Shown one piece after another: positions 4,783 to 64,000 of a stretch of DNA of 64,000 bases. The translations under genes were made by a program, and so were the position numbers. Source of the stretch: Protoeuglena noctilucae (Eukaryota). The stretch's first letter is position 1, and every line of letters starts with the position of its first letter. The notes under the pieces are model-generated. The model was not told where the DNA came from. It saw only the letters and a list, made by a program, of their open reading frames with translations, and searched no databases. Location: positions 310,001-374,000 of the forward strand of contig OY253685.1 in NCBI GenBank assembly GCA_958009085.1. The letters run 5' to 3'.

Positions 4783-6066
4783 TCAGTCGGCGGCGGTCCC
4801 TTTGGCGCGCACGTAGTCAGTGAGGCGCATCATGCGCACGAACTTGCGGTAGATGCCCGGGTTGATGTCCGCGACGAGGCTGAGGGGCGGTCGTTTTCCA
4901 TGGCGCGCCGCGTAGGCATCCAGCCACGTCATGATCTCCCGCTTGATCGCCACGAGCTCGACCATGGCGCCCTGCAACTCAGCACGACGCTCCTTATCGC
5001 GTCAAGGCACAGAGATGACTCGGCAACGACACGGCACCGCCATGGCAAAGCAAAGCACGAAGGACTCGCCTCCGCCACCAACTCGTCCCACTCAGAGCTC
5101 TTCGGATCACGCTCCGTGCCCTGCCACTCCGCCACGTCCCGCTGCCGGCGCTGGAGCTCCTGCGGACCCACAAAGCACCCGGATGGCCGTCACCCATGCA
5201 CGTGCACCCGACAGCCCCGCATCCCTGACCAGAGCACCCGGCCGCACCTTCGCCAGCCTCTGCTCCTCGAAGTAAGCCATGACGCTGCGCTTGATGGCCA
5301 GCTTGTGCTCCAGACTCTTCGCCTGGCCCTTGCGAGGCCCCGGCCGGGCCCCCGGCACCCGTGCCCGGCGCGGGGGGACGGGCCTGGCCCGGTCCGCGAT
5401 GCCCAGCGCTCTCGCCACGCGCACCGACGCGTCCTCCGGCCCGCCATCCTCCGACAGCAGGGCACCCAGCGCAAGGCGCTTGGCCAGCAGGCGCGTGCGG
5501 AGTCGCTTGGCAGCAGGCGCCGAGTAGCTCTCGGGCGGCCCCCGCAGCTCGAAGTTTGCCGGGTTGACGACGCCTAGCGCCCCTTTCTCTGCACTTTCGC
5601 CGCTGGTCTCCCTCCCACCACCCTTGGGTAACACCTTTGCTGCTCGACTGCCTGGTGCCGCCCCCGTGGCCCGCCCTTGCCTCCTCCCGTCCCCCGCTGC
5701 CACTGGTTCGGACCCGTCCGCACCAACGTCCTTCCTCCCTCGATTCCGGGGCTTCTTCGTCCGCATCGCGGGTAGTTCGCGGTCAATGGACGGACCCAGA
5801 CCTGGTCGCCCAGCAAGCCGCTTCTTGGGCGGCTTTTCGCGGCCCTTGCGCACCGCTCCATCTACCTTGGGAGCGTTTGCGGCGACGGGGTTCACTCCCT
5901 TCACCTGCCCTGCCCGAACGACGCGCGCAGGCGCGGGTGTGCGGGCGCGTGGTGGCAGTGCTCCATCGCCAGCGCCACGCTGCGCGCCATCCCCTCGGTC
6001 AGACGCGTCGGCTGTCGCGCGCGCTCTCCATGTGCGCCGCTCCCCTTGGTTTCCCCTCGCCACCAA
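4783..6066 (-). CDS. Hypothetical protein with helical C-terminal domain (KREIMTWLDAYAARHGKRP...IYRKF, FAM13A C-terminal-like); start uncertain
   Basis: Three exons splice in phase 0 (EEQRLAK|ELQRRQ...ELVAE|GAMVEL); TGA at 4783-4785. Domain resemblance is from memory only. Confidence 0.5.
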
Positions 6067-6540
6067 ACGCGGAGGCCTGCGTGGATAAAAAAGCCTCCGT
6101 GCTTCGTCTGCTGCGCGCCAGAAGCCATGTACTGCTTCGCGACGCAGTCATGTCACACGCTACGCGTCGTCCTCACCTTGCGAAGACCGGCCGGGTGCGC
6201 GAGGCCAGGGGGGTGCAATGGACGCACCACTGGGCCATCCACGCGCGTCCACCACAACCCATGCGTTCCTCTCGTCGATCTCCACCGCGCTCGCACCTTG
6301 TCCACGTCGGAAAGCGTGGGAAAGCATTTACCCTACCCGGGCCAGAATCTGCCGTGCGCTTTTCCGGAGCGTCACCAGTTGGCGGGGCGGAATGTCATCG
6401 CCCATCGCCGCCCTCGTCGCTGTCCTCGCATTCTTCGCTGCTTGCTTGGAGATCGCGAGAGAAGCGCGACCGCGGTCTCAGGGCCCTCCCGAGCCGCGGG
6501 CCCGTGGCAGGGTGGCCCGCTGGAATTCGTCCGCGGGACC

Positions 6541-8492: not shown

Positions 8493-8933
8493 TTCTCTTT
8501 TGTTTGTCCAGCTCGCCTGAGCGTGCAGCTTTGACCCCGCTGTCGTGGCGCAGCAGTAAGCGTATTCTTCCCAGGATCTTGAAAGTTTTGGTCCATCAGA
8601 AAAGTGTGTACCCGCAAGTTGGACCAAAAAGAGGTCGAAGGAGCCTTTTGGGCCCGCAGCTGCGTTCCATAGGCTAATATTCGCGCAAGCGTCGTGACTG
8701 CATTCCATTCGGGGGCCCAGATCGGCCGGAAAACGTTTCGGAAATCTCTTGAGGCCCGGCCGTCCCGTGCCTTGCCGCCATGTCGGGCGGCAGGACGGAC
8801 TACGTCTTATCATACGATGCACAAGGGGCGGGGCACTTCGATGACGGCCTCCACGACGGGCCTGACCCGACGGGGGTCAGCGAGGGCCAAAGGGCGAGTC
8901 GCAGGGGGCCACCGCATTTGCAGTAGCTAGAGG

Positions 8934-11900: not shown

Positions 11901-14256
11901 GCGTGGAGAGGCGCTCCGTGGACGTGTGGGTCCACCCCCACCTCTTCCGCACCCATGTGTCCCTCGGGGCGCCCCCCGACTACTTCAACGCCTCCGGACA
12001 GAACTGGGGCTTCCCCGGCTACCACTGGGACGCCATGGCACGCGACGGGTACCGGTGGTGGCGCGCGCGGCTGGGGTGCATGGCCCGCTACTTCCACGCC
12101 TACCGCATCGACCACGTCCTGGGATTCTTCCGCGTGTGGGAGATACCGGCGGGGGAGGTGAGCGGGGCGTTGCTGTGTGCGGCAGGCGAGGCGGTACGCG
12201 TGGGGCGTGGTGGGGGCGTGCGAGGGGGTGGGGGTCTTGCTAGCTTAATGAGGGTACTTGAGCACGTGCTGCGTGATGCTTGGGGTGCTGGAACACGGAA
12301 GGTCCAGGCCACTCTGCAACCGCCAACCCCCTCCACCTCGCCCCTGCTCGCCCCGGCCACGCAGGTCACGGGGATGCTCGGCCGCTTCCGCCCCGCGCTC
12401 CCTCTCACCCCGGACGACCTGCGATCGGCGGGGTTCGACCCCAGGGACCCCGCGGACGTTGCCAGACTGGCGGACCCCCACGTGTCAGAAACGGCGCTGG
12501 CGGAGGCGTTCGGGGGCGACGAAGCGCTGCTGGCAGAGGCGAGGGACAAGTACCTGGAGTGGGTGCCGAACGGGGCGGGGGGAGCAGTTGCGGGGGGCGC
12601 GGCAGCTGCGGCAGCTGCAGTGGGCGCGGCAGTGGGGACGAGTGGCGCGGGGCGGTGGGCGCTGCGGCCGCAGTGGTGCTCGGAGGAGCGGCTCAAGAGC
12701 CTGCAGGGCCCGCTCGCGCTGCGTGACGGCCTCATGCGCCTCCGCCAGAACGTGCTGTGCGTGCGGGACCCCGACAACCCAGACAAGCTGCACCCGCGGT
12801 GAGGGCCGGGTGCAGACAAACCCACTTCATCTCTGCGCCCGTGTCGTGCTGCGTCATCCTGTAAACCTCACCTGCAACAGCTGAGGATGCACGAGCCTTA
12901 ACCGTACACCCTGCCACCCTCCCTCACCCCACCTGGCCCCGCCCCACTCCCAGCATCGGCCTCGACGCCACAGAGTCTTTCCGCGCCCTGCCTGAGACCC
13001 AGCAGGACGCCCTGCGCCGCCTGCACGACGCCCACTTTTTCGAGAGGCAGGAGCGCGTGTGGCGCAGGCAGGCGCACGCCACCCTCCCGGCGCTCCTCGA
13101 GGCCAGCAGCATGCTGGTGTGCGGGGAGGACCTGGGCATGATCCCAGGTGAGGCCAGCAGCATGCGTGCTTGAGTGCGGACAGGACCCACACACCATCTC
13201 ACCTGCGCGCCACTCTCTGCCCTCTCGCCCTCAGCGTGCGTGCCCCCCGTGATGCACGAGCTGGGCGTGGTGGGCTTGCGCATCCAGCGCATGCCCTTCA
13301 AGCAGGGAGAGGAGTTCGCGCACCCCAAGGATTACACCTACATGACCGTGTGCCAGCCCACGTGCCATGACGTGGTGCCCGTGAGGTGAGGGGCGATGAC
13401 TGACGCAGTCCGTTCCTGGCCTCCGGCAATCAGGTAAATTACTTACATCTGAGTGGTTAAATAGGTCCCATGCATCACCACTGCAACTTTGCTTCGACTC
13501 CTGACCACCCCGGCCCCCTGTCCCGCCCCAGGCTGTGGTGGGAGGAGGAGCCTCGCCGCACGGCGCGGTTCGCCTGGCAGATGTTCAAGCTTTGCGACGT
13601 CCCCGACAAGTGCAACCCGGACGTGCTGCAGCTCATCGTCAAGCAGCACCTGGACTCGCCCTCGGTGCTGTGCATCCTCCTCATCTCCGACGTCCTTGCC
13701 CTCATCCCCACCTACGCGGGGAGGTGAGGCGCGGTGCTTAGAGACCTGGCACGGCGCTGATCTGCGGGGATGCTGTAGAGGTGCACAGTACGCAAGCGGA
13801 TTGGTGTAGAGAGGATGCCCCACGGCGCCTCCCTTGCAACCCATCGCGACCCCACCCAGTACTGCCTTAGGTCCCACTGCAACTGAACTCGACTGACCTC
13901 TCGGTGTCCTCAGGGACGCCCGGGAGGAGACCATCAACGACCCCACCAACCCCCACCACTACTGGCGCTACCGCATGCACGTGCCCCTGGAGACGCTCCT
14001 GGATGACGACTGCTTCATCGGGGACGTGCAGGAGATTTTGTTCGGGTCGTCGCGCATCGCCGCCGAGGACGTGCGCAGGTTCTGGGAGGAGCGGGAGGCG
14101 GGGCAGATGAAGCGGAACAGCTACCCAGGGACCATCCAGTCGGTGGATGTGGGAGGGAGGGGCGCGGCGGGCGGGGCCAGGGGGGGCGTGGTGGTCGGGA
14201 GCGCGGGGGCGGTGGAGGGGGAGATGATGGGGTCCCTGGGGGCTGCCAGAAGCTGA
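8934..14256 (+). CDS. DPE2: 4-alpha-glucanotransferase DPE2 (two CBM20 domains + GH77), ~14 exons
   Basis: CBM20 motifs (FMTEWGQRVVMIGEGPLLGDWD; GQEIYVTGSAPQLGSW); GH77 motifs WRGAGVSAPLFSLRS, QLLPINDT, LKGDLPIGV, GAPPDYF, GQNWGFP, YRIDHVLGFFRVWEIP, CGEDLGMIP, TCHD, INDPTNPHHYWRYRMH. Confidence 0.95.
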
Positions 14257-22783: not shown

Positions 22784-23189
22784 CCTGGCGAGCCCCGCGA
22801 CGCGCTAGGCCGAAGCCACTGATCGCTCGCGGCCCAGGAGACGGCCGAGCGGCTGCTCAGCTGGGAACCGCCACGAGTACAAGCAGCGGGGCGCGGCAGG
22901 GCTGGCCGACGAGCGCTGCTCAACAAATGTAGGCGTGTCGGGGCCGGAACCCGCCACATGTCGGCGGTGGTTTCTGACACGCTCAGTCCGACTTACGGGC
23001 TGGTGGCCGCTGACCGGCGCTCGTGCACGGCTGATTTCCTAGGATCGCCCAGGGACGCGCGGCAGTCTGGCTTCGCTTGCAAGGTGGCGAGTCGCCCGCC
23101 TGGCGTCGCTGGGGCGCTGTGTTGCCGCAGATGGTCCTGTTCCGCATTGCCCCTTGATTGAAGTTGCGAAATTGCGCATCGGGGAGGAA

Positions 23190-26100
23190 GATGGCGGCTC
23201 AGGACGTGGAGGGCGTCGAGGTGAGGACTGGCGTAGCTCTCACGAACTTCTCTCCGCCCTTTCGCCGGTTTCCGGCAGCCACCCGTGCGCATGATGGCGA
23301 CGTGGAGATGGGCGTCCAGGATCAGGCCTCGGTGTCCGCCTCGACAGCGCCCGGAAGCTCATCAGGGACGACGAAGGCAACGGCCAGCCATCGCGCTCCG
23401 CCGCCGCTTTCCCGCAGGACCTCCTCGGGAACGAAGACGACGACTATTACTATGGCGCGGGGGACGAGACGGACGAGCTGTGGAGGAGGTGGGCGCGGCG
23501 CGGAGTGCCCAAATGCGTGTCGCGGTTGTGCTCCGGCTGCGGGTGGCGGGTGGGGGGCGAGGTCTCCGCGGTCTCCGAGCGCCGTACCTCGCTTATGCTG
23601 CAGGGATGCGCACATGCGCGACTCGGCGTCGGAGGACGGCCGGGGGGCTGATCGTGGCTCGCCCCCGGGCAGCCCGCAGTCCCGGGACGCGGGCGACATG
23701 CCTCGCCCCGGGGCGGAGAGCCAGGAGGACCCCGCGCTTCGTCGCGCGGGTGGTCGCGAGGGTCCCCGTCACGCGATCTTCCTGAACCGCCGGGTGGGGG
23801 AGCGCGGGCCGGGAGGGGACGAGCACGCGGGCCCGCGACCCCACCGTCCGGACGGGGTGCGGCCCCCTGCTCCGCGCGATTTCGACAGAGACCGTGACTG
23901 GGACCGCCGCCCGCGCCCCCGACCGGGGGACGGCCCGCCGCCCCGCGACCGGGACCGCGAGCTGCCTCGCGTGTTGAGGGAGTTTGCCCACATCCCAGGC
24001 GCCTGCGAGCGGTGCGGCCGCCTCAACCACGTCCTCGCCGACTGCGCCGCCGTCAAGAACATCCACAACGCCTACATACGCGACGACTACCTGGCGTCCC
24101 GGCAGGCGCGCATGAGTGCCGTGTGGGGTCCCAAGCCGCTCATGTGTCACCGCTGCGGGCGCAAGGATCACCACGCGGGCGAGTGTTTCCACAAAGCCGA
24201 CGTGGCTGGGGGCGAGATCCGCACCCCGCCGGGCGTCGTGCCCCGCTTCGCCCCCGGCGACCCCGTCCCCTCCTTCCGGTGCCCCCGGTGTTTCCGCACC
24301 GGCCACGCCTACGACGAGTGCACCTTCAACCGCAACGTCTACAGGGACGACATCCCGGGCCCTCCCCCGCGCCGCTACGTGCCCCCCAGCCGCCAGCTGC
24401 CCCCGGGAGACTACCCCCCGGGGCGGGAGCCCCACGGCGCGGCCCCTTCCGGCCCCGTGCCCGCCCACCGCCCTGACCGCAGCCCCCGCGTTCCCCCGGC
24501 GGAGGAGGGCTCCACCCCTCCGCGCCCGTCGCGCCCGCCGCAGCGCTGGCAGCCGGGGCCGGACCGGCCCGCCCGCGGAGGCTCGGAAGTGATCGACGAT
24601 GCCTCAAACCCCAACCCCGCGCCCAGGACGGCGTCTGGCGGGGAGGACATGCGGGACGCAGGTCACGGCCCTCCGCTGGACCCCGTCCGCCCCGCGATTA
24701 ACGCCCTCGACGCGCCGCCGCTGCCTGTGGAGCGCCCCCCCGGCGACCGCCCTGGGCACGGCGGGCGGCCAGGGGTGGCTCGGCAGGGCTTGGCGGGTGC
24801 GACGAGGGGTCCTGGGCCTGGCCAGGAGGAGGGTCTGCCGCCCGTGGATCACGTAGCGATGCTCGGCGACGCGGGGGCCACTGAGAGGGGCGGAAGCGCG
24901 GGCGCTGCCGGTACCGCAGATGGCGCGGTGGACGCTCGTGGGGAGGGGGTGTCGGGGAAGGGTTCCAGTGAGGCTGGGACGGGGCCCAGGGGAGCGGCGG
25001 GCAAGGAGGCCAGGGCGGAGGCGCGTGTGAGCGCGGAGCAGGGGCGAGCGGTGGGTGGCACTGGAGTGCAGGCGGGGGCGGGTGGTGCCGGCGGGGCGAG
25101 GGAGGGTCCTGGCGCCAGCGCTGCTGGTGGCGCTCCAACGGGCGGCGTGATGGCAGCGGGGGCGAATGCGGGGGCCCCTCAGGTCCCTAGCACTGCCGCG
25201 GCGCCGCCCCCCATGCCCGCCCCTCCTCAGCCGTACCCTGGGGGCATGGCTCTGCCCTTCGCGCCTGCCCCGGCCCCCGCTGCTCTGTCGCCGGACGGCG
25301 AGCAGCTGGTGCAGCTGCTGATGCGGACGGATACCCGGGAAGCGGTGCGGTACCCGGTGGTTTTCGACTTTGACCTCGGGTGCCTGCGCAACCGCCACGG
25401 CATGGCGCTGCCCATCTTCACGGGCGACCGAGCGGTGATGCTGGCGGCGGAGGGGCGGAGCCTGGGGGAGATCCTCGAGGGGCTGGTGGCCGAAGGGGTC
25501 GTGGCGTGGGGAGACGCGGCGTTGTCGGATGGGGAGGGAGACGACACGGACGCCAGGTGAGCCGCGGTGCCCGTGCACAACGCTCGATGGTGCTTGTTGG
25601 CTCGTTGCCAACGCACTCTCTTGCGGGTTGTCCTGTCATGAAATGCTCTTCCTGTGCCGCAGCCAGTCGCTCCCGCTTTACCAGCGCCCCTGGATGCACG
25701 GCCCGGACCCCGCAACGGTGGCCCTGCACCCGCCCCTGGCTGTCGCCATCGCGGGCGACGCGGGGGGCCTTTCGCGCTCTGGCGTGGCCCACACGGACAA
25801 GCAGGAGGCTGGGGCGGGCCCACAGGAGCCCGCGGGGACGGGGGAGGTGATGCTGATGAGGAGGAAAAGGGGCGAGGGCGATTCGGGGGCTGCGGCCGAC
25901 GAGGCCGGCAAGGGGAAGGGACAAGCGCAGGGGTCGGCGAAGGCTGCTGCGGCAGGGACCCAGAAGGCCGGCGTGAAAGCCACTGGCGCTGGTGCCAAGG
26001 GCGGCGTGGCGAAAAAGGGGGCGGGGTGGACTCCCCCTCCGATCCAGCCCCCGCCCAGCGTGGCCCGCGCGCAGAAGGCCAAGGCAGCGACTGGGCCGGC

Positions 26101-41700: not shown

Positions 41701-44004
41701 ACCCCCGCGCCTACCTCAGCCCCTGGCAGCGCGCCCGGCCCTTCCGGCCCCTCCACAGACACGGGTGCAGGCCCCTCTGGCAGCCCGGGGGGTTCCGGGT
41801 CCCCGAGCTCCACCGACGCCGCCAACGCGGGCAGCTCCAGCGCCTCGACGACCAAGAAGAAGTCCGGGGGACTCTTCGCGTCCACCTGGGCCGTCTACGC
41901 CGGGGGAGCGGTGGCCTTCATCCTCATCCTCGTCTTCGGGGCCCTGGGGTACCTGACGTTCCTGCATTTCCAGGTGGGATGGGAAGCGAGGTGGCGCCAT
42001 AACGAGCTGGCGTCTTTCCCCTGGATAACTCCAACGAGCTGGACGGGGCGCCTACAGCGTGCCTGCTGACCCCTGAGTGCGCTCGTTCCTGCAGATCAAG
42101 GCGAAGAAGCGTATGATTGCCTCGCGGCCGGCCGTGAGCGTGCCGGTGCGCGTGCTGCCGGGGCCCAACAAGGGCGACCTGGCGATCGACATGGGCGACG
42201 GCGACGAGGGCGCCAACGACTCGAACGGCACGACGACCGCCTCCGGGTCGGGGGCGGGTCGGGAGGAGGGCGAGGGCCAGGGCGTGGAAGAGCGCCCGCA
42301 GTCGCCGACGTACTCGGGGCACCTGGAGGTGGCTTCGGGGGAGGGGCAGGAGCAGGCCGACGTGNNNNNNNNNNNNNNNNNNNNNNNNNNNNNNNNNNNN
42401 NNNNNNNNNNNNNNNNNNNNNNNNNNNNNNNNNNNNNNNNNNNNNNNNNNNNNNNNNNNNNNNNNNNNNNNNNNNNNNNNNNNNNNNNNNNNNNNNNNNN
42501 NNNNNNNNNNNNNNNNNNNNNNNNNNNNNNNNNNNNNNNNNNNNNNNNNNNNNNNNNNNNNNNNGGTGTCGCTGTGGCGGCGTCCCGGCCCGGGTCGGCC
42601 AGGCCTGGGGCCGTGGTGGCGGGCGCGTCCCGCCCGGGGTCCGCCAAGCCGTCGTTGGGCGTGCCAGAGGAGGAGGCAGCGCAGCGTGCTGCGTCACGCC
42701 CTGCGTGAGCCAAGACGCAGGCAGATGCGCACGTGCCGGCGCAGGACGCACGGGCTCCGTCGCGCCCTGCCTCCGCCAAGCTGCACCCGGACGTCGCCGC
42801 GCCTGCGCCGGTGCACCAGGCACAGACGCCGTCCCGCCCCGCGTCGGCAAGGTCGCAAACGGGCGCGGTTACGGCACCGCAGGGCGTCCCGCCGGCAGCG
42901 GCTGCGTCACGCCCTGCGTCGGCCAAGCCACTGGCGGATGCCTCTGCAGCGGCTGTCGGAACGCCGGCTGCCTCACGTCCGGGATCTGCCAGGCCTCAAG
43001 CAGCAGTGGCAGCGGCAGCGGGGCCTACAGCGGCACCGGCTGCGTCTCGGCCTGGGTCTGCCAGGCCGCAAGTGGAAGCGGCGGCGCCGCAGCCTGCAGT
43101 GGCACTTGCCGCCTCGCGTCCCGCTTCGGCCAAGGCGCAGAACGCGCCCGTGGCGCCAGTGCAGGCTGCAGCAGCGCCGGCAACATCGCGCCCCGCTTCG
43201 GCGAAGCCGCAGCCGCGGGCTGACCCGGCGGCGGGGCCACCTGCTGCCCCTTCGCAGCCTCCTAGCGCCGCGCCAGCTGCCGCACCTGCTGCCGCGCCTG
43301 CGCCAGGGAACGCGGCGCCGGCCGCCGAGGGCGCGGGTGGCTTGCTGTCTGCGCAGCGCTCGTCGGTGGACGTGATGCTCGAGGCGACGCTGAGCGAGAA
43401 GAACGCCTTGGCGGAGCGCATCCGGCAGCTGGAGGCCATGCTTGCAGCGCAGATGGCCACGGCTGCCGCACCTCCCGCTCCCCAGCCCAGCGCGGAGGCG
43501 TCGACCAGTGAGATGCGCGCAATGCCCTCATCCCTGCATGCCTGCATGTGCTCCCCCGACTCCTGCGACCTCCCGCCCCGTGCGCCCACCCCAGGTGCAG
43601 CCCGCGCCCCCCCGAAGCCCGCACCCGTCGTCCCCGACGAGGAGGAGGAGGAGGGGGACGAGGAGGGCGAGTTGGAGTTTGACGAGGGAGAGCCGTCGCA
43701 GGCGCTGTCGGACGGCCGGCTGTCGCCCAGCAAGCGCCGCGTGGCCAAGAAGGGATCGAAGAAGCCCGGCAAGCGCCGGAGCAACAAGCGGCTGGAGGCG
43801 GAGGGCGACGCGGGGCCGAGCGCGGGCCCGGTGCCAAGCAAGGCCCGGTCGCGGTCGTCGGCCAACCCGCTGGCATCGCCACCCGAGGGCGTCCCCGCAC
43901 CGTCGAAGTCCAACTCCCGCACGGTCCGCACGTCCCCGACCGTGAGCCGCACCGTGTCGCGGAAGCCGGAGAAGGGCGACTCCAAGCGACGGATGCCTCA
44001 GTGA
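38724..44004 (+). CDS. Type-I membrane protein: signal peptide, RCC1/BLIP-II-like beta-propeller repeats, S/T/P-rich stalk, one TM helix, repetitive cytoplasmic tail
   Basis: MACLRRYLVALALAVLALALA signal; seven C..(K/V)CWG.N..GQ(L/I)G.GD repeats; TM WAVYAGGAVAFILILVFGALGYLTFL at ~41887-41964. Interrupted by an N-gap and an in-frame TGA at 42706. Confidence 0.85.
42365..42564. other. Assembly gap (200 N)
   Basis: Run of N. Confidence 0.99.
42565..43210 (+). repeat. Coding peptide repeat (A/T/P)SRP(A/G)SA(K/R), about 10 copies
   Basis: Translation shows recurrent SRPGSAR/SRPASAK separated by A/P-rich spacers. Confidence 0.85.
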
Positions 44005-51464: not shown

Positions 51465-54400
51465 ATGGCCGACAGGGGTGGGCCGCGGCAGGCCCTGGAC
51501 ATCAGTCCGGAGGAGGTCGTGTTCCGGGGCGTCGTGCAGGGCCAGGTGCGTAGAGGAAGGGGTGGGAGCACTCTTTGAGTTCTCGTCCGCTCTCGTGCGA
51601 CGCGGCCAGCGATATCGCAGCGCAGCTTCACTCCAAGCTCCTGTAGCACTGGTTTTGTCGGGTTGTCCCTCTCCGCGTGCCAACAGGCCTTCGCAACACT
51701 GTGCTGGGACGCGTTGTCACGGGGAGATGCATCGAGCTGCCCGTGTGCGAACAAGCCGCGAATCACTCCGGCACCTCGTGGCCAGCCGCATATTTGCAGG
51801 AAGGCACGGCTTGTGTCCGGGGAAGTTATTGCGCCCGGCCCTCTCCATGGAAAGCCCCTCGTTCTCCTTGCAGACGTACGAACAGGTGCTCTCCGTCGCG
51901 AACCGCCTCCACGCGCCGCTCGAGTGCACCATTCGCCCGGCGGGTTCCGAAAGGTACAGCGTCGAGCCATCAGACTTGCGTCTGGGCCCAGGCGAGACCG
52001 GGCGCGTCGTCATTCGCCTCAAGGTCGTCCGCGTGCCGAATCGAAAGTGAGCGCCCGGCTTGGCCGCCTGTCGCTGCGCCCCGGTCCTGGCCAGTGACTT
52101 GCGGTGATGCGATTGCACCGCGCACGCTCTCCCGCCCCCAGGAAGGCGGTCGATCAGGGCATACGTGACGTCTTCCACGTCAAGAGCAAGTACTTCGACC
52201 AGATATTCCACGCAACGTTCTTCCTGGATCCGCTCGATCCCGCATCCGACGCCCGCCCCCCCGCGGCGGGCCCGCCCCGCAGGCCTGCGCCGTTGCCACG
52301 GTCTCGCCAGGCGTCGCCCCGGAGGGGCCAGGGAGGCCCGGAGGCGCCTCCCCCCCTCGGGGCGGCCGAGGCACCGGCGGAGGAGTACAGCATGGTGTTT
52401 GATGAGACTCGCGAGGGGCCTGCTATCATCCGGGGCGTGCCGCCAGGCGCGGGTGGGTCGGAGGCCTGGGCGTCCCAGGTGGCGCGGCTGCGGCAGGAGC
52501 TGGACGCCAAGGCTGGGCTGGTGGAGACGCTGGAGAGGAGGCTGGAGGTGGGAGACGGGAGGTGGGCGTGCCAGCCGGGTGCGGGGTGAGGTGGAGGATG
52601 AGGAATGCGCCCTTCCCTGTCCGCAGCTGGCCCAGACGATGAAGGGGGCGACGCGGGCGGCCGACCCCGAGGAGGTGCGGACGTTGCAGGGCCGGGTGCA
52701 GGAGCTGCAGGGGGCCCTGCAGGTGGCCAGGGGGCGTGCGCGGGAGCTGGAGGGCGACAACGCCGCGCTGGCTGAGGAAAACGGCTGGCTGCGGCGAGTG
52801 CAAGACGAGATGCAGCGCGCCCATCCCGATCTCCATCGCGCAGCAGAGGCGAGGGCCCGCCTGCCCAGCTCACCTGCTGCCTCTCGGCCCTCTCCGCGCC
52901 TTGGGTGATACGTCACCGTCCAGCTTTCCCTCACGTATGCGCAGGCCTTGCTGCACCGGGAGCGCGCGCAGCAAGAGGCCCGGAACGCCAAGGTGCTCGA
53001 GCTGCTGGCGGCCAAGGACGAGGCGATGCGGGCGTTGGAGGCACGCAACGACGAGCTGGGGCGGGAGGCGGCGCGGGCGCGGGGTGACCTGGCAGAGGTG
53101 GCGAGCAAGGTGAGCGTCCAGGGCATGGGCAGGAGGACGCGACTGGGGTCTGGAGCATGGGGGCGGTGCAGGCGGGTTCTCTGGGTGGTGCAGAGCTGAG
53201 TTGGGGACCCCGATGCACGCTCATCCCAGCAGCTCTCTCGCTCATTGCAGCTGGACGCCTCAGAGGCGCGCGTCGCGGACCTCCTCCAGGTGAAGCTGGA
53301 CTTGCAGCGGCAGATGGACCGACTGTCGCGTGAGGCGGCGCACCAGGCGGCTCAGCTGCGGGCGCGGGTTGCGGAGGCCGAGGGAGCGGCACGGGCCGCG
53401 CGAGACACGGCGGGGTCGCAGCGGGCCGAGCAGGAGGCCCGGTCTGCGGCGGACGCACGGGCGGCCCTCGAGTCCAAGACGGTGGCGCTGGAGCATGCGC
53501 TGGCGGAGCTGGAGGGGCTGCGCGCGGCCCTGGTGCGGCCGGGACCTCAGGGCGCGGCGGGCGATGGCAATGCTGTGCGAAACAAGGCAGGGCAGATGGC
53601 GCCGACTGTGAGGGACGATCGGGACCGGGAGATTGCGGCGCTGCGGCAGCGCGTCGCGGAGCTGGAGGTGAGGAGAAGGACATGGGGTGTTTACGGACCC
53701 GCGCCAGTGCCGCGATCGCTAGGAAGGACCTGTAAGCACTTGCTCCCGCCGGTGTGCAGGCGCAGGCGAGGGAGGCGTTCAGCAAGGCTGGCAAGGGCGG
53801 CGACCCTTCCTCAGTGCCGCCCCTGCCGCGGGACATGCAGGGTGCCGGGTGGGAGGCGGCACAGCGCCTGAGCGCGCGTGTGACGGAGCTGTCTGCGTCT
53901 GAGGCGGCCCTCCGTGCCGAGGTGACTGCGCTGCGGGAGGCGGCGGAGCGGGAGGAGGCGCGGCAGAGGGAGCGCGACCGGACGGGTGCGGGTCCTGGCG
54001 GGGCGGGGAGGGTCGATGACGGCCTGGGCGAGCTGCACGCCAAGCTGCTGTCGTGCCTGGAGGATAGGCGCAAGGCGGAGCGGGAGGTGAGGGTGTGACT
54101 ATGGCAGCATGGTTTGAGGAGAAATGGGGTAGGTGTGTTCATGGGCACCCACGTTTGGCTGACAGGGACGGGGGCCGTCGCTGGCAGTGGGGTGCATGGC
54201 GTGTGCGGGCCGACAGGGGACACTCGGGACCCGGCTCTCTGCTCGCAGCTGGAGGAGAGCAAGCGGGCGTGGTCGTTCGAGAAGGAGGGCCTGGAGGCAG
54301 ACGCGCGGAGGGCCCGGCTGGAGGCGGCGGCACGCGTGCGCACGCTCGAGGACGCGGTGAAGGCGCTATCGTCGCGCGGGGACCCCCAGCTCGAGATCGA

Positions 54401-57400
54401 GCGTCTGTGTCGGGAGATGGACGCGGTGCGCCGGTCCGAGGCGCGCCTCCAGGACGAGCTGGCCATGGCGCGGCAGCAGGGGGCGCGCCTGGCGGCGGAC
54501 CTGAGGGACGCGGAGGCGCAGCTGGCGGCGCTGCGGGCGCGGGACGAGGAGTCCGCCGCGCTGGATGCGGCCGTGAGGGCGGCGGAGGGGCGTGCGGGGA
54601 CCGCGGGCCCTGTGGCTGCGGCGGGGGACGCTCTGGCCGTGGTGCGGCAGCTGCAGCGGGACAGGGAGGAGGACCGGGCGAGGCACGCGGCGGAGGTGGC
54701 GCGGCTGCGAGCGCGGGCGGAGGACGCGGAGCGGCAGGAGAAGGAGGCGAAGGCGGGGCGTGGGGCAGCGGAGCGCGGGGGGGGGAGTCCCGCGCCCGTC
54801 CCCGGCGGTTCGGATCGGCGTGAGGGGGGCGTGGAGGCTTTGGAGGAGGCGCTGGAAGCGGCGCAGCTGGAGGCCGCGAGTCTGAGGGCGGCGGTGGCGG
54901 AGGCGAACCGGGAGGTGGCGGAGGTGCAGCGTCGGTGCGAGGAGATGTCGCGGGTGGCGCACGCAGCACGGGAGGACCTGGCCGCAAGGGGGGTGGAGGC
55001 GGCGGGGCACCACAGCGCCGAGGTGGCGGCGGCGACGGCGCGGGCGGCGGACGCGGAGAGGAGGGCGGCGGCGGCCGAGGCGGGGAGGGCCGAGGCAGAG
55101 GCGACGTCCCGGGCGGCGCAGCTTGAGGTGTCGCGGCTGCGGTGAGGGCGCGGGACTGCAGCTGCCCTGCCGCAGTGCCAGCCGCACAGACCCCGCCTGC
55201 CGCTGCTGGCGTGGGTGCGCCTGCCTAGTGACCCCGACTTCCATGACTCGCTCATGTCTGAGTGTCATGATGCGCGCAGGGCGGAGGTCGAGTCCCGGGA
55301 GCGCAAGTTGCACGCGGTGCGGCGGCAGGCGGAGACGGCGGCGGAGGAGGCGCGCGCGGCGGCCGCGGCGGCGGGGAGGGGGCGCGATGCGGCGGAGGCG
55401 CAGGCAGAGGAGCGCCGGGTGCAAGTCGCGGTGCTGATGGACACGGTGGAGGCCCTGCAGGCCGGGAGCGGGAGCGAGCGGGACCAGCGGGTGGTGACGC
55501 TGACGGCGCAGCTGGCTGCGGCGCGGGCCGTGGAGGGGTCGCTGGAGCGGAGGGCGACGGAGCTGCTGGCGGAGGTGGAGGCGGCGCAGGGGGCGGCGGC
55601 GCGCGCGGGGGAGGCGGCGTCGCGGGCGACCGAGGACCTGGCGGCCGCGCGGGCGGAGGCGGCGGGCCTGCGGGGCCACGCGGAAGCGCTGGCGGGGGAG
55701 GTGGCGCGGGCGCGGGCGGCGGCACGGAGGGTGGAGGAGGAGGTGGCCGGGCTGGCACGCAAGCTGGACGTGGCGCAGGAGTCCCTGCGACGCAGCCAGG
55801 CCGACCTCAAGGGCACGCAGGAGGCGATGGAGACGGCCAGGTAACACCCGGGGGGGTTGCAGCAGACAGCGCAGGGTTCAACAGCACATGGGGTATTTAC
55901 CAGGCATCGGCCGCCTGACGTGGACGGTCCTGCGTGTATCGCGTCTCCCCGACTCATGGACTTTGCAGGGCGCGCCACCTGGAGCAGCTGTGGAGGGAGA
56001 GGTCGGACCAAGCAGAGGCGCTGCGGGAGGCGAAGGAGGCGGCGCTGCGGGCAGCCACGGCAGGGTCGCCCGAGGCGGAGGCGGCGTGGGAGGAGCTGCA
56101 GAATCCGGCGCTGGTGGCAGCCGTCAACGCCGTGGCGGAGGCGATTAGGCGAGCGCGGATGGGCCGGGGGTGGCTGGTGAACGGGAGCGGCGCCGCTGTG
56201 AGGCTGCCTGCCATGTTCATGGGCCACCTTCCCACCTTTCCAAGCGCAGTCGCGTCCCCGCCCGGCGAGTCCCTTGCCCGGCACGTGCCGCGCGTGGTGG
56301 AGCGCTACCGGGCGACGGTGTTGGGGGCCGAGCGGGGCGCGCCTGCGGGCCGAGGCGGACGCGCGGATGGCGCGGTGGGAGCTGGCGGCGTGCCAGGCTC
56401 GCCTGCACTCCGCAGAGTCTGCGTTGGAGGACAACCTCTGCCGCCGGGAGGTGGCCGAGTCGGCGCGGGCGTCGGAGGGCGCGATGGCGCGCGCCCAAGT
56501 GCACGAGCGGCAGATGCACATGCAGGAGCGCCTCGATCTGGCGCACCAGCACATCGATCAGATGCACGCGGCCCTGCAGGCGAGATCGGGCGGATGACCG
56601 CCCTGCAGACGCCCTGGCTGGGTGGCCGACGTACATTGTGCAGGCAGCTGTGTCACCTTCCTCCGCCCTCGCCTTCCCACAGGACACTGCACAGAAGCTC
56701 GCCCACAGCCGAGTCCCAGGCGGAGGCTTCCACGGCAGCCCTGGAGGTGGAGCGGGGACCGCGCCGANNNNNNNNNNNNNNNNNNNNNNNNNNNNNNNNN
56801 NNNNNNNNNNNNNNNNNNNNNNNNNNNNNNNNNNNNNNNNNNNNNNNNNNNNNNNNNNNNNNNNNNNNNNNNNNNNNNNNNNNNNNNNNNNNNNNNNNNN
56901 NNNNNNNNNNNNNNNNNNNNNNNNNNNNNNNNNNNNNNNNNNNNNNNNNNNNNNNNNNNNNNNNNNNTGATGTAGATGCAACGGGCTGCACCGGCTCGGA
57001 CGCGCCCGCAGGAACTGGAGGGTCGCGTGGCAGCGGCGGCGGAGGCACGCACGCGTGCGGCGCTGGGCGGTCAGAGCCCCGCCGAGGTGGCGTCGGCGCT
57101 GGGGGCGCTGGAGAGCAAGGCGGCTGCCCTGTCGCGAGAGTGCGAGGTGCTGGAGACGCGGCTGTCGGAGCAGCGCGCGGCGGCGCAGGCGGAGCTGGCG
57201 GCGCGTGACCAGGCGTGGGAGGCGCGTGTGGCGAGGGCGCGGGACGCGGGGCGGGGGGAGCGCCGGGAGGCAGAGGCGCGGGCGCTGGAGGCGGAGCGGC
57301 GGCTGCGGGCGGCGGGGGAGGAGGCGGCGCGGGAGCGGAGGCGCGCGGAGGAGGCGGAGGGCGAGGCGCGGCGGGCGCGTGCCGAGGCAGCTGAGGCGCG

Positions 57401-59293
57401 GGCGGCGGGGGAGGGGGAGGCGCGGGCAGCGGCGGAGCGTCACGCGGCGGCGATGCAGGAGTTGGAGGCGCGGATGGAAGGGGAGCGGGCAGCGCTGCGG
57501 CGCGAGGCGGAGGCAGCAGCCGCGCATGCCGAGCAGCGGGGGCGGGCGTCGTCGGACGTGGCGGTGGCAGAGGCGCGGGCGCGGGCGGCGGCAGCGGAGG
57601 CCGAGGCGGGTCAGCGTGCACTACGGGCGGAGGAGCGCGCGGCCGAGTGCGCGAGGCAGCTCGAAGCGTACCGGCGCTTCCGGGAGCAGGAAGTGGCGGC
57701 GCTGGAGGCGCAGCTGCGGGCGGCCTTGGGAACGCCCCGTGGCGACGGTGGTGGCGGCGGCGGCGGCAGCGGCGGGGAGGCTTGCTCGCTGCCGTCGAGC
57801 GTGGACGACGCGGTGCGCCGTGTGCGGGAGGCGCTCGAGTCGGACGCGGTGGGGGCGGCGCTGCGTCAGGCGGAGCTGGAGGCTCTGCAAAGGGAGCGCG
57901 CCGAGGCGTCGGCGTCTGCGCTGCGTCGGGAAGTGGAGGAGCTCCGGGCGCGCGCCAAGGCTCAGGCCCGGGAGCTGCGGGAGCGGGTGCAAGGGGAGGC
58001 AGGGGCACGGACGGCGCGGGCGGAGGCGGAGGAGCTGCGGGCGCGAGTTGAGGAGCTGGAGGGGGCGTTGGGGCAGGCGCGACGGGAGAGCGCGAGGCGG
58101 CTAAGGGCGCTGCGTGAGGTGCAGCAGCGGGCGGACGGCGGCGGTGCGGCGGGTGAGGCGGAGGCGGGGCTGCTGGCGCGGGTGGTGGCGGAGCGGGAGG
58201 GGCGGGAAGGCGCGGAGGCGCGGCTGAGCCAGATGCGAGCGGAGGGCCAGCGGAAGGACGCAGTCGTGGCGAGCCTGCGTCGGCGCGTGGAGGAGCTCGA
58301 GGGCCAAGCGCGGGCGGCGCAGGTGAGGAATGCACCGTCGCGGAGTGCAGCACGCGGCGATGACTCGGGGGGCGGGCTCCTCAGTTGTAATGGCAAGCGC
58401 CTGACCGCAGGAGGCGGACTGGGAGGGCAAGTGCGCGGCGCTGGAGGCCCGGATGAAGCTGCTGCAGGCGGAGGTGGGGCGGAAGCAGGAGATGCTGCAG
58501 CAGCTGCGGGAGCGCGTGGACGGCCTCGTGGGGTCGGCGCAGGAGAGGGCGGCGCTGCAGGAGCAGGAGAGGGCACAGGTGACGACGACGGGCGGCGGGG
58601 GTGCCAGAGCGGCAATGTGCCTGCACCTGGCCGACGCCTGGCTGTGAAGTCCACCCTCGCAGGCGGCCCTGACCAAGGTGCGGGCGGAGCTGCACCGCAA
58701 GCAGGGGCAGGCGCGGACGCTGCAGGCTGAGGCGGACCGCCTGCGTGCCGAGGCGGGGGAGCTGAGGAGGGCGGCGGAGGAGGCGGCCAAGCGGGAGGCC
58801 GCGGGGGGCCGGAAGAGCGCGGCGGAGGCCGCGACGCTGCGGGGGCGCGTGCAGGAGCTGGTGTCGTGCGCGCGGGGCCTGGCGCGCGCCGTGGTGCAGG
58901 TGTACGACGCGGCCACGCACGCCCTGCAGCGGCACCGGGGACCCGACGCGGTGCAGGCGGCGGTGCGGGTGAGGCAGGAAATGGCGCTGCGATCAGAAGC
59001 TCCTCCGTCCCCCCGGCTTGTGTGCTGGGGCGCCTCACATGGTCCCGCTGCCACGCCTGCAGGGAGCGCGGCTGGACGAGCTGCAGGCAGTGCAGGCGCC
59101 CCCTTCGCCGCTGCCGAACGCATCGGCGCGGGCGCTGGCCGAGGTCGTCGCCGACATGCTGCTTCGGCTGGAGAACGCGGCCATGGCGCCCGTCGGGGGC
59201 ACGGCGGGGGCGTCGGGGCCGAGCGCGGAGGCCCTCCTCGACTGCGCGGGCCGCGTGGGGAGGGCGGTAGAGGCATGCCTTGCCGCTCTCTGA
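51465..59293 (+). CDS. Large centriole/basal-body coiled-coil protein (centlein-like motif) with N-terminal ASH/MSP-like Ig domain
   Basis: N-terminal beta domain LDISPEEVVFRGV...VLSVANRL...SVEPSDLRLGPGET; HPDLHRAAE|ALLHRERAQQEARNAKVLELLAAKD recalls centlein; extensive heptads. Contains an N-gap and probable sequencing indels. Confidence 0.65.
56768..56967. other. Assembly gap (200 N)
   Basis: Run of N. Confidence 0.99.
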
Positions 59294-59354
59294 GGAAGAG
59301 GATTGGGGGTCGATGACACAGTCCTTGCGTTAAAGTGGTCCGAAAGTCTGAGTT

Positions 59355-60060
59355 CTAGAAAAGTTTCAACCCCTGGTGACCATGTTGACTAAGGACTTGG
59401 CCAGCACCCCTGCCTCCCTCGACAGGTCCTGCGACGCACAGGCAAGCATTGGTCAGAGCGGCAGAGTGCTTCAAGGACACGCCGTTGACCGTTGCTGGTG
59501 CAGCGCGCACCTGGTGAACGCGCAGAGCTGCGGGAGGGATGATGGTCCATGGCACGATGCGGCACAGGGCTGAGGCCCACAGCCCCGAGGCACCAGCCAG
59601 CAGAATGGGCACGGGGTAGCTCATAGCTACGTCAGGTATCACGCCCGTCAGGAACCAAAGGCAGGTGCAGGAAACCTGGAAGACAAGGACCGGGCCAAAC
59701 TGGCCGGGCTCGTAGATGCCGCACAGGGAGCCGAAGGCGAGCACGAGCGCACCCGCCCCAATGAGCCTGCGGGGAGGACACCTGGGGATTCCGGACACCC
59801 CCAGCGTCACGAGGCTCGCGGACACGGCCCATCACGACGCGGCCGGACCTCATCGCGGGCCCCGGCAGCCACGCCTCCCCGTAGACATGCAGGGCGGCGG
59901 TGCGTGGGCTCGTGAGCGACAGAACCCCGACGCCGGCATGCAGAGCGGCGTTAACCGCGAAAGCATAGCGCAGCAGCAGATCCGGGGCGTAATTCCCCAG
60001 GAGATGGCCGCCGGCTGCCCATCCTGCAATCAAAAGGGGGGCTGCAGTGATGTGGACCAC
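59355..60060 (-). CDS. Small multi-pass membrane protein of unknown function; both ends uncertain
   Basis: Two hydrophobic ORFs joined by a phase-2 intron at ~59766-59848 (PAMR|LIGAG); 4-5 hydrophobic segments. Confidence 0.6.
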
Positions 60061-60612: not shown

Positions 60613-61839
60613 ATGGCCGTCGCCGGGGGCCGGGTGACGCATGGCGTCGGCTCCAATCTCATCGGGATCCACTCCCAGGCCCGCAACCAGGAGGCGACGC
60701 TGTACGTGGGCAACCTGGACACGCGGGTGACGGAGGACATTTTGTGGGTGAGGAGCCCCAGGAGCGACGGATGCCGGGCCGCAGATGCCTTGATTTGCTC
60801 GCGCCGTCACACGCCGCGTGGGCGGCGCGCGCAGGAGCTCTTCATCCAGGCGGGCCCGGTGACGAGCGTGTACGTGCCCAAGGACCGTGTGACGAACGAG
60901 AACAACGGGTTCGGGTTCGTGGAGATGAAGACGGAGCGCGACGCGGACTACGCCGCCAAGGTGGGGAAGAGGGGATCGCCCCAAGCGGACGAGGGAGGGG
61001 GCGGGGCTGATCAGCTGGCGTCGCGGCGCTGCCAAAGCCCTCCCACGCCGCCCCCCCCGGCCGCAGGTCATGAATATGATCAAGCTGTTTGACAAGCCCA
61101 TCAAGGTCAACAAGTCCGCGACGGACCGGCAGACGCTGGACGTCGGCGCCAACCTGTTTGTGGGCAACCTCGACCCTGACGTGGACGAGAAGGTCCTGTA
61201 CGACACCTTCAGCGCCTTCGGGGGGATCGTCGGCCAGCCCAAGATCATGCGGGACCCGGAGACGGGCAACTCGAAGGGGTTTGGCTTCGTGTCGTTCGAC
61301 ACGTTCGAGGCGTCGGACGCCGCCATTGAGGCCATGAGCGGGCAGCACCTGATGAACCGGCCGCTGGTCGTGCAGTACGCGTACAAGAAGGACACCAAGG
61401 GGGAGCGCCACGGGACGCCGGCGGAGCGCCTCCTCGCGGCCCAGCGGCGCGCGCTCATGGAGACCGAGGCGGCCACCGCGCGGCCGCACACGCTCTTCTC
61501 GACCGGGCCGCAGCCGCTCGGGCCCGCCGCGCCGCCGCCGGGGTCCGGCCCGGGCATGCCGCTCCCGCCGATCCCGCCCATGATGGGCTTCCCGCCCCCC
61601 GGAATGGGTGAGGGCGGCCGCGGGGCAGCGGGGGGGCTGCACGAGCGACGCGGGCGGTATGGCATGGCTGACATTGCTCTTGTTCTCCTCCCGCTGCAGG
61701 TGGCCTCCCCATGCCCCCCCCGCCCATCCCCGCATCTATGGCTGGGCCCCCGCCGGGCGCCTGGCACGGCCCCCCCGGCATGCCGCCCCCGCCCTTCCCC
61801 GGGGCGTACCTCCCGCCTCCGCCCCCCGGCTACTCCTGA
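60613..61839 (+). CDS. SF3B4: Splicing factor 3B subunit 4 (SAP49)
   Basis: [87 protein letters not shown]; Pro-rich tail; TGA at 61837-61839. Confidence 0.96.
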
Positions 61840-62264
61840 TCGTGCCTGGCGACGGCAGCGTGAGATCCTGGCTGAGTCTTGGGGACGGGCAGCGCGTTGA
61901 AGCCGACGAGGAGTGCGCCTGCGCGTCTGCCACGCGGCAGCAGGTTGTGAGTCCTACGCCGACGTCTGCGGGCGTCGACAGGGTGCGCCAGCTCTCTCGT
62001 GACTGCCGCCGGCACTGGTCACGCGTGCGGGTGGCAGCGGCCCTGGTGGGCGGCGCTGGCGGGGTGTGGACGACCGCCCGCATCTCCCCGGGCCTTGTCA
62101 TAGGTCCTCAAGGCGTGGGTGACCGCGTCCTCATGGCGGCACTGCTCTCCTGGCGCACCACAGGGCACCAGCGTGTCTGATGCGCCCGGGAAGTTTGAGG
62201 CTCAAGAAATGGCGATTCTCTCACCCCCCCCCCCCCTCCCCCAAGGCGACGCCCGTCTTTGTCT

Positions 62265-62916
62265 CCCCCCCCCCCAAGACTCAAGGCGTAATGGTTCAGC
62301 CCGAACACGTCTGACACCGGCAGGGTCAGAGCGTGGGTCAACCGCGGCACGAGGGTGCGCACACCCTTCGTGAACACTGAGCACGGCTTCAGGGTCATCA
62401 TAACCAGCCAAGAGCGCCGGGCACAGGGGGGCGAAACCCCCCACTGGCCCCTTGGGAACCACACTCCCAGAGTGCGTGGGGGCTTTGCAAAGCGTCCCGG
62501 GGGCGGCAGCGTCGTAAGGCCACCTGAACGCGTGCGGTGAAGGCAGCGGCAGCCCCAAGGGACTGGGGGGACCGGATCTCGGGGACCTGGGTCCCCCGCT
62601 CTGTCCCACAAGGGGGCGCCAAAGCCGTACCAGCACTCCGAACATGACGTGAAACCCTCGGCCACCGCCCCCGACTCTGCTAGGCCCCCGCCCACCGGCG
62701 CCCGCCCGAGGTTTCCTTGCGGGCACCCCGTGACGAGCACCGACGGGCAGCCGGCTGTCCCGCGGGGCCGAACCCGGGCTTTAGAACCCTGGAGGGCCGG
62801 CGACCTTGAACTCCTGCACGTCCAGGCGATACCGCAATGTGAAGTACTCACCACGTCCCGCGCATGCGCGAGCAGGCTACCCACACCATCACAGGAGTGC
62901 CATCTAGCAGACCCGG
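62265..62916. mobile_element. Element E1: non-coding retroposon-like insertion starting with a C11 run
   Basis: Left flank acgcccgtctttgtct (62249-62264) recurs as acgccccgtctttgtct (63524-63540). The 301-nt core 62416-62716 is homologous to 63208-63508. Confidence 0.7.
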
Positions 62917-62931
62917 TGCTCCCACGCCCCG

Positions 62932-63048
62932 AAAAAAAAAAAAAAAAGGCTCGCGGCGGGATCGGAGCTCGACACGTCAGCACCTGGTGCCAGACGCGGG
63001 TGCCTCTCACTTCTCTGGACACCAACCGTGACCCGTGAGGGACCACGA
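62932..63048. mobile_element. Element E2: heavily truncated copy (A16 + 101 nt)
   Basis: 62948-63048 matches 63078-63178 with one mismatch; TSD tgctcccacgccccg at 62917-62931 and 63517-63531. Confidence 0.75.
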
Positions 63049-63060
63049 CCATTGCTCCCA

Positions 63061-63506
63061 AAAAAAAAAAAAAAAAAGGCCCGCGGCGGGATCGGAGCTC
63101 GACACGTCAGCACCTGGTGCCAGACGCGGGTGCCTCTCACTTCTCTGGACACCAACCGTGACCCGTGAGGGACCACGATCTCGAGCTCGTCATTTCCCGC
63201 CGCGGGTGCCGGGCACAGGGGGGCGAACCCCCCCACTGGCCCCTAGGGATCCACACTCAGAGAGTGCGAGGGAGCTTTGCAAAGCGGCCCGGGGGCGGAA
63301 GCGTCATCAGGCCACCTGAACGCGTGCGCTAGGGGAGTGGCGCGCCCAAGGGACTGGGGGGACCGGATCTCGGGGACCTGGGTCCCCCGTTCTGTCCCAC
63401 GAGGGGGGCACCGCAGCCTTTGCAACACTCCGAACATGACGTGAAACCCTCGGCTACTGCTCCCGACTCTACTAGGCTCCCGCCCGCCGGCGCCCGCCCG
63501 AGGTTT
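63061..63506. mobile_element. Element E3: A17-18 + terminal hairpin module + shared core, truncated on the right
   Basis: Perfect 18-bp TSD ccacgaccattgctccca at 63043-63060 and 63507-63524. Confidence 0.8.
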
Positions 63507-63674
63507 CCACGACCATTGCTCCCACGCCCCGTCTTTGTCTTTGATGGTCGTGAAGCTCTGGTACGAAAGCAGCGAGCGCCGGGCATGCCAGGACGGAGAG
63601 TTGCTGTCAGAGTACCTGATGCCAATCCTTTTGCTAAATTGTTGCAGCATTTCGACTTCCGTTGTCGAAGACGT

Positions 63675-63748
63675 TCCGGCTTAGCTCAGTTGGTTAGAGC
63701 GCACGGCTGTTAACCGTGAGGTCGCAAGTTCGACCCTTGCAGTCGGAG
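63675..63748 (+). tRNA. tRNA-Asn (GTT)
   Basis: Cloverleaf: acceptor TCCGGCT/AGTCGGA, D arm GCTC/GAGC, anticodon arm CACGG-CTGTTAA-CCGTG, T arm GCAAG-TTCGACC-CTTGC, discriminator G. No encoded CCA; TTTT follows within ~10 nt (Pol III terminator). Confidence 0.97.
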
Positions 63749-64000
63749 CAAATCTTTTGGTGTGCCCAAGGATTACCCTACCGGGTATTGACCTACCCGC
63801 CTTCGGAGAGAAAGTCACCTACACTGCGCATGTGTAGGTACCTGTGTAGGTCAGCGCGAGCGCGAGGTCGCAAAACCCGTGCCGTGCCAAATGCACTGCA
63901 ACGATGGAAACCCCGGGGTGTCAGCTGCCCCGGGGGACGGCACTTCTGCCGCAAGGCGTGGCTCTGAGAGTCATAGCACCCCTCGACTGTTGAATCGCTC

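Follow-up and report, generated by a model that had tools for sequence, protein, structure and literature searches.

A stack of retroposon insertions upstream of a tRNA-Asn gene suggests that a marine microbe has mobile elements aiming at tRNA genes

How three related elements came to be stacked directly upstream of a single tRNA gene, and whether that gene guided them there, are the questions raised by a 64-kb stretch of Protoeuglena noctilucae DNA (contig OY253685.1, positions 310,001 to 374,000), hereafter the window. The elements, E1 (62265-62918), E2 (62932-63048) and E3 (63060-63508), form an array in a single orientation upstream of tRNA-Asn(GTT), which ARAGORN identified at 63675-63749 on the + strand as the sole tRNA gene of the window, and which scored 66.8 bits with Rfam. 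The array suggests that this marine microbe has mobile elements aiming at tRNA genes. Guidance of insertion by the tRNA gene is its best explanation, with a probability that we put at roughly 55%. The coordinates of all features are collected in Table 1.

Alignment of the elements revealed that E2 (approximately 117 nt) corresponds to the first 117 nt of E3 (approximately 449 nt) with 99% identity, and that positions 131-452 of E1 (approximately 654 nt) correspond to positions 127-446 of E3 with 87% identity, defining a common core of about 320 nt. The relatedness and shared orientation of the three elements described in the initial annotation were thus reproduced. The tRNA-distal 110-120 nt of E1 and E3 are unrelated to each other. 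Four of the five homopolymers of at least 10 bases in the window lie inside the array (C13 at 62224, C11, A16 and A18).

A direct-repeat search revealed that all three copies are flanked by target duplications of variable length (18, 15 and 16-17 nt). The sequence at 63043-63060 is identical to that at 63507-63524 (18/18), 62917-62931 to 63517-63531 (15/15), and 62252-62264 to 63528-63540 (13/13), the last pair extending to 16/17 positions between 62249-62264 and 63524-63540 with one C fewer. Every spacer therefore copies part of the 34 bp at 63507-63540, as had been proposed from inspection, and none of the three spacer sequences occurs again anywhere in the window. When 62100-63800 was shuffled 200 times, exact repeats reached 14 nt at most, in a single case, and never 15 or 18 nt. 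The homology of E2 to E3 stops at 63048, and the 'ccacga' with which each copy of the 18-mer opens corresponds to the final 6 nt of E2. The 15-mer begins with the last 2 nt of E1, followed by 5 nt foreign to both the element family and the E1 duplication. Nested in this way, the duplications establish the insertion order E1, E2, E3, each new copy landing on the tRNA side, and the derivation of 'ccacga' from E2 bears out the earlier claim that the newest copy is nearest the tRNA gene. The reported placement of the targets, 135-168 bp upstream of the tRNA-Asn +1 position, was likewise recovered, and the three junctions that were hit have no common sequence.

The homopolymers lie on the side of each element away from the tRNA gene, as runs of A or C on the + strand. 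Since all copies keep the homopolymer end and vary at the other, the homopolymer end marks the start of synthesis and the tRNA-proximal end the truncation. The tail positions and truncation together indicate that the sense strand of the elements is the minus strand, that their tails are oligo(T) or oligo(G) instead of poly(A), and that each element has its 5' end turned towards that of the tRNA gene. At the 5' junctions there is either filler of 4-5 nt or a 2-nt microhomology. No terminal repeats indicative of long terminal repeat (LTR) elements were found inside the single elements, and the duplications measure 15-18 bp, not 4-6 bp. This anatomy, with a tail, a 15-18 bp duplication, 5' truncation and filler or microhomology, is that of target-primed reverse transcription (TPRT), and the duplications, tails and truncation all uphold the initial reading of serial retroposon-type insertions. 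A fourth micro-remnant, E0, had been proposed at 62224-62248. Its sequence is present, and a repeat search found it 79% like the start of E1, but it has no recognisable target duplication.

Contigs with 80% likeness or above were found in four public runs, with 151 in X1, 92 in X6, 56 in X7 and 15 in X11; X1 may be the sample from which the window was assembled. In X1 the unique left flank has a depth of 39, compared with 502-1043 for exact element contigs, and in X6 a depth of 14, compared with 76-160; contig depth is not a copy number, and is taken here as 'many copies' alone. Other copies continue past 62918 (X1, X6 and X7) and past 63508, where the continuation in X7 is that of E1. Copies elsewhere were also detected through spurious open reading frames (ORFs) that run over them in public assemblies, consisting of 9 of 877 candidates with the E1 minus-strand frame, six representatives from an all-length search, and 4 of 129 candidates with the plus-strand frame, for a total of 15 distinct proteins. 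P0001 and P0003 have 80 and 90 residues, respectively, before the first residue of E1, and P0013 extends 107 residues beyond the end of E1; the family runs at least 240-321 nt further 5' than E1, which is thus truncated relative to longer copies, and the outermost part of P0013 may be flank. Tails are crossed by 7 of the 15 ORFs, through G runs in P0004, P0006 and P0008, which carry the same 3' module as E1 and likewise end in G runs, and through T or A runs in P0003, P0011, P0014 and P0015. None of the seven flanks matches that of the window, and they differ among themselves by eye, which places the copies at different loci. The family is multi-copy and dispersed.

Stacking also occurs outside the array. 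In P0006, a T-rich run is followed by about 18 nt and then by a 5'-truncated copy of the E1 type, reproducing the E2/E1 architecture of the window with another truncation point and another flank. An X1 contig joins 63267 to 62269 with 14 letters between them, giving a truncated copy, a spacer and the tail of the next copy. A further joint, 63008 to 62709 (+CACCT), was considered as a stack and rejected; the contig, present in X1 and X6, runs from the E3-type 3' module to the end of the core, and is better read as a variant from what is probably an internally deleted subfamily of that type.

Searches of larger DNA collections yielded no further copies. A 25-mer from the core had no exact match in viral, metagenome and prokaryote-genome contig collections, and a 27-mer from the 3' module of E2 and E3 had none in the viral contig collection. 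A profile of the ORFs from other copies gave 236 pattern matches in metagenome contigs and 36 in genome contigs, of which 0 were confirmed. A metatranscriptome contig of 559 nt shows 19 differences from E1 and leaves E2 and E3 uncovered; it is unstranded, DNA carry-over is possible, and it was not used as proof of expression.

Assembly error, or local duplication or recombination in place of retroposition, would be a different origin for the array, and one that we regard as highly improbable. The assembly has two 200-N gaps within the window, and neither inner junction is bridged by an independent contig among the matches listed, 63051-63087 having been masked in contig matching. The nested duplications are self-consistent, making a misassembly of the array very unlikely: the unique spacers form an exact tiling of the sequence upstream of the tRNA gene, and both copies of the 18-mer include the 6 nt of E2, a pattern that mis-joining of repeats would not produce. 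The 3' module and tail of E1 moreover differ from those of E3. Public contigs contain both outer junctions: an X1 contig spanning 61400 to 62294 has the left one, and an identical 434-nt contig (63479-63912), found in X1 and in marine metagenome X6, has the right one. Local duplication, named at the outset as an outcome that would refute the retroposon reading, is contradicted by the family copies found elsewhere, both in public contigs and through the ORFs over other copies. More than chance is at work in the array, in which TPRT insertions of a multi-copy, dispersed family are stacked, a family marked by two 3' modules and by unusual tails other than poly(A).

The 3' modules of E1 and of E2/E3, designated A and B, are alternatives within this family, as indicated by P0003, in which an E1-type 5' region and core are joined to the B module. 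A perfect 12-nt inverted repeat (63080-63091 and 63195-63206) encloses the B module, whose RNA, unlike that of the A module, stands out in its predicted fold (-76 kcal/mol, z -5.0), with 0 of 200 shuffles as good. Such a structured module fits a 3' module that would be recognised by a reverse transcriptase (RT).

The absence of an RT or endonuclease ORF from the array, noted initially, was borne out by a Pfam search of 12 stop-to-stop ORFs from the array together with P0001, P0003 and P0007 from longer copies, which found no relevant family at E ≤ 0.1; a match to the Spt5 CTD (E 0.021, under its cut-off) was dismissed as noise. A long RT-bearing protein containing the element was not found among the six representatives, all of which are 262 aa or shorter. 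So far, the non-coding sequence of the family adds up to no less than about 900-975 nt (654 nt plus 240-321 nt). Judging from sequence, E1-E3 may be non-autonomous elements, or may represent a long 3' portion, without coding function, of a long interspersed nuclear element (LINE). No match to a tRNA-like head was found inside 62224-63540 by ARAGORN or by Rfam at E ≤ 1, the true 5' end being absent from all three copies, and a B-box-like GGGTTCGGCCCC was seen by eye in the 5' region of E1. The length of at least about 900-975 nt argues against a typical short interspersed nuclear element (SINE), usually shorter than about 600 nt. Elsewhere in the window, an 800-aa ORF (23158-25560, + strand) contains a gag-type CCHC zinc knuckle (PF14787, E 1.2e-7). 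The neighbouring ORFs have no RT domain, and this ORF may be what is left of a retroelement or else encode a CCHC protein of the host.

All three family copies in the 64 kb (3/3) lie within 168 bp of the sole tRNA gene, and two subfamilies, with the A and B modules, hit the same 34 bp. Essentially random insertion, with copies surviving only at harmless intergenic spots, could give the appearance of a safe harbour by survivorship, and would draw on the gene density of the window, which has Pfam-supported genes throughout and an expressed gene ending near 61900, leaving few harmless sites. Selection is nevertheless unable to put three independent insertions into one 34-bp target in the same orientation, and the rest of the intergenic region (62000-62220, 63541-63674 and 63750-63880) is without copies, so that we hold this account to be improbable. 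Three hits within 34 bp are impossible by random insertion plus selection, and some aiming must therefore exist. tRNA genes are a known landmark for retroelements, which, given that aiming, favours guidance by the tRNA gene over a hotspot independent of it.

Such a tRNA-independent hotspot would mean that the serial insertions are real, the mark being instead the junction or neighbourhood of an older copy, a pyrimidine tract or open chromatin behind the upstream RRM-domain gene, with the duplications regenerating the target. The duplications of E2 and E3 each straddle the 5' junction of the preceding element, stacks exist at loci without a demonstrable tRNA gene (P0006 and the joint 63267 to 62269), and 25 of the 34 target bases, counted on the sequence, are pyrimidines on the + strand. 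The distance, too, fits no tRNA-targeting window given in the available portions of the literature discussed below. Set against these points, the junctions hit share no sequence, making a sequence-reading endonuclease unlikely, and we know of no mechanism by which the 5' junction of an older copy would be targeted independently of sequence. Pyrimidine stretches are common at 68% GC, yet no other copy occurs in 62 kb. The first insertion, whether E1 or E0, already lay 135 bp from the sole tRNA gene of 64 kb, and a second repeat family abuts the other side of the same gene. On balance we consider a hotspot of this kind unlikely, though by no means negligible.

Guidance by the tRNA gene remains the preferred explanation, and several observations weigh against it. 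The link rests on one locus, which was picked for its striking look, and no tRNA gene was shown in the flanks of other copies. The positions -135 to -168 are outside the windows published for tRNA-targeted non-LTR elements (2-98 bp upstream in the parts of the sources available). The array lies about 320 bp downstream of the expressed RRM gene, a possible other landmark. Oligo(T) and oligo(G) tails are unlike the products of standard L1-type machinery. To these are added the inner junctions, both unbridged as described above, and the absence of an empty site in two marine metagenomes, as a result of which mobility is deduced from anatomy and not from polymorphism. No contig joint skipping the array, as expected of an empty or partly filled site, was found in X1, X6 or X7, contigs being prone to drop rare variants, and a protein search with an ORF spanning E3, the spacer and the tRNA gene (P0017) gave 0 of 76 candidates.

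A candidate tRNA gene was examined in the flank of one other copy. In P0015, the sequence PGLEPG within residues 1-30 lies about 168 nt from the tail of a B-type copy and fits the T arm and acceptor stem of a tRNA in antisense, and an ad hoc cloverleaf score of 16 was obtained, compared with a maximum of 15 for 400 random window peptides and 15-23 for codon-degenerated forms of the real tRNA of the window. The candidate was rejected, having a poor D arm and a C at position 33, and ARAGORN made no call on the best back-translation (4 of 250 nulls were called). A motif in the left flank, CTCAAGGCGT, was likewise set aside as chance, with 8 matches at one mismatch or fewer against 5.3 expected.

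The second repeat, R, begins on the other side of the tRNA gene and runs off the end of the window. Its depth in X1 is 2047-12009, compared with 39 for the unique flank. Loose ends before 63883 show that other copies continue to the left, this copy being truncated on the tRNA side. R also occurs about 46 residues (about 138 nt) past the T tail of the copy behind P0003, with 16 of 18 residues identical. No other copy was found in the window, Rfam gave no match, and a 30-mer had 0 matches in the viral contig collection.

Table 1 Features of the array and its surroundings in the window (positions in the 64-kb stretch; sense refers to the element strand).
Feature	Position	Strand	Remarks
RRM-domain gene	61070-61900	+	ends about 320 bp before the array
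Possible micro-remnant E0 (putative)	62224-62248	-	C13-T-C5 run plus 'aaggcg' (sense: CGCCTT plus G-run)
E1 duplication, left copy	62249-62264		acgcccgtctttgtct; one C fewer than 63524-63540
E1 3' tail	62265-62275	-	C11 on +, G11 in sense
E1 3' module A	62276-62394	-	unrelated to 3' module of E2/E3; fold z -1.3
E1 core	62395-62716	-	87% identity with E3 core
E1 5' region	62717-62918	-	ends at 62918; other copies continue (X1, X6, X7 loose ends; P0001, P0003, P0013)
E2 duplication, left copy	62917-62931		tgctcccacgccccg; takes in the end of E1 and its filler
5-nt filler ctccc, E1 5' junction	62919-62923		putative, from comparison with other copies
E2 3' tail	62932-62947	-	A16 on +, T16 in sense
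E2, 3' module B	62948-63048	-	5'-truncated after about 100 nt; 99% to E3
E3 duplication, left copy	63043-63060		ccacgaccattgctccca; opens with the 6-nt 5' end of E2
4-nt filler ccat, E2 5' junction	63049-63052		putative
E3 3' tail	63060-63077	-	A18 on +, T18 in sense
E3 3' module B	63078-63186	-	RNA closed by a stem of about 12 bp right before the tail
E3 core	63187-63508	-	5'-truncated at 63508; X7 loose end beyond continues like E1
34-bp target, right-hand copies of all three duplications	63507-63540	+	-168 to -135 from tRNA +1
Unique spacer, target to tRNA gene	63541-63674	+	covered by one 434-nt contig
tRNA-Asn(GTT)	63675-63749	+	TTTT run a few bases 3' of the gene
Second repeat (R)	63883-64000, off window end		starts 134 bp downstream of tRNA-Asn 3' end

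A mechanism consistent with the array can be proposed, in which E1, E2, E3 and perhaps the tiny E0 would be independent TPRT insertions of one multi-copy non-LTR retroposon family. The element RNA, which has the sequence of the minus strand, would consist of the 5' region, the common core, module A or B and a homopolymer tail, G with A and U with B. According to the TPRT model, an endonuclease would nick the tRNA-sense (+) strand after 63540, 63531 and 63523/4 (-135, -144 and -151), the freed 3' OH would prime cDNA synthesis on the RNA tail, and the second strand would be cut 15-18 nt further upstream. Reverse transcription would end early, giving 5' truncation, and an RT encoded elsewhere would presumably mobilise the copies in trans. 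With the tRNA-side target copy surviving each insertion, the next element lands at an equal distance and older copies are pushed away, so that the newest and least-displaced copy would adjoin the tRNA gene. The landmark for the distance would be the tRNA gene, which RNA polymerase III (Pol III) transcribes, either through its transcription complex or through a nucleosome that it positions. Dictyostelium TRE5 and yeast Ty1 would offer parallels to such guidance.

A broader proposal is that the retroposon system gauges distance from Pol III genes, landing about one nucleosome away (-135 to -170) and not beside TFIIIB; that it serves at least two lineages with a common core and different structured 3' modules, U- and G-tailed in place of poly(A); that, with the downstream repeat, it makes tRNA genes the main landing pads of the genome; and that it arose independently of the Dictyostelium and yeast systems, in another eukaryotic lineage and with a new geometry. 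This we advance tentatively, as somewhat more likely to be wrong than right.

Upstream placement as a safe harbour is shared with yeast Ty1 and Ty3. In Ty1 the upstream window is broad and follows nucleosomes, not the transcription start, and by analogy a nucleosome-linked window of the Ty1 type would fit a distance of about 150 bp. Ty1 and Ty3 are, however, LTR elements that use an integrase and leave 5-bp duplications, whereas the elements here have no LTRs and have 15-18 bp duplications, tails and 5' truncation. Copies of L1-like APE-type LINEs resemble E1-E3 in their variable 15-18 bp duplications, 5' truncation, filler or microhomology and 3' homopolymer, and differ from the array with its three hits in one 34-bp target, non-poly(A) tails and two 3' modules swapped on one core. 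We know of no G-tailed retroposon.

The non-LTR elements most comparable in their placement are Dictyostelium TRE5 (TRE5-A/DRE), TRE3, NLTR-A and NLTR-B, which are likewise spaced from tRNA genes and found on both sides of them. A table of Pol III-targeted retrotransposons in the available part of one article contains yeast and dictyostelid elements only, with the non-LTR elements located 2-6, 39-64 or 40-54 bp upstream of tRNA genes, or 40-150 bp downstream of them (PMC5911963). Spaller et al. gave distances of 31-98 bp across TRE5 families, for tRNA-adjacent elements only, since other tRNA-specific elements can intervene (PMC5006619, in the portion available), which implies stacking in dictyostelids too. 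The array would follow TRE5 in its logic, and at 135-168 bp falls outside the 2-98 bp upstream window that these excerpts give for the TRE5 and NLTR elements. It also differs from the dictyostelid elements in its oligo(T) and oligo(G) tails and in its GC-rich marine host, which is not amoebozoan; the comparison is drawn from one locus, with no ORF by which to place the elements in a clade.

Plant tRNA-derived SINEs such as Au SINE share a 3' oligo(T), target duplications and a non-coding nature with the present elements. In the available part of its description, Au SINE carries both an A and a B box, together with a short poly(T) at its 3' end, and is reported in A/T-rich regions (PMC4223381). 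By comparison with that account, the family here has no tRNA-like head in the parts present, a length of at least about 900-975 nt and one G-tailed subfamily, and lies beside a tRNA gene. A full-text literature search, with supplements outside its scope, returned no algal, plant or Micromonas case of a tRNA-targeted retrotransposon. In the available text of PMC5006619 and PMC5911963, yeasts and dictyostelid amoebae are the sole hosts given for such targeting; the word 'alga' is absent from both, as is 'plant' from PMC5911963.

The host is a GC-rich (68%), intron-bearing eukaryote present in marine metagenomes. The RRM gene upstream of the array contains a 92-nt GT..AG intron (61607-61698) that is spliced out in a metatranscriptome contig. 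The region 52000-60000 stands apart from the rest of the window in its strongly positive GC skew (0.16-0.29) and in a GC content that reaches 76%. The assembly gaps comprise exactly 200 N each, at 42365-42564 and 56768-56967.

Targeting of tRNA genes is a textbook survival route of retroelements in gene-dense genomes. Should the tRNA link fail genome-wide, the array would be merely a local retroposon hotspot, of modest interest. If it is confirmed genome-wide, the lineage, spacing and tails would be new, the targeting strategy itself being already known. The non-A tails and swapped 3' modules are also relevant to template recognition by reverse transcriptases. If the link is true, the family would represent a further independent origin of the strategy, in a marine picoeukaryote; its differing spacing could disclose that the machinery senses a positioned nucleosome and not TFIIIB; and an ecologically abundant organism would offer a natural insertion system with defined positions.

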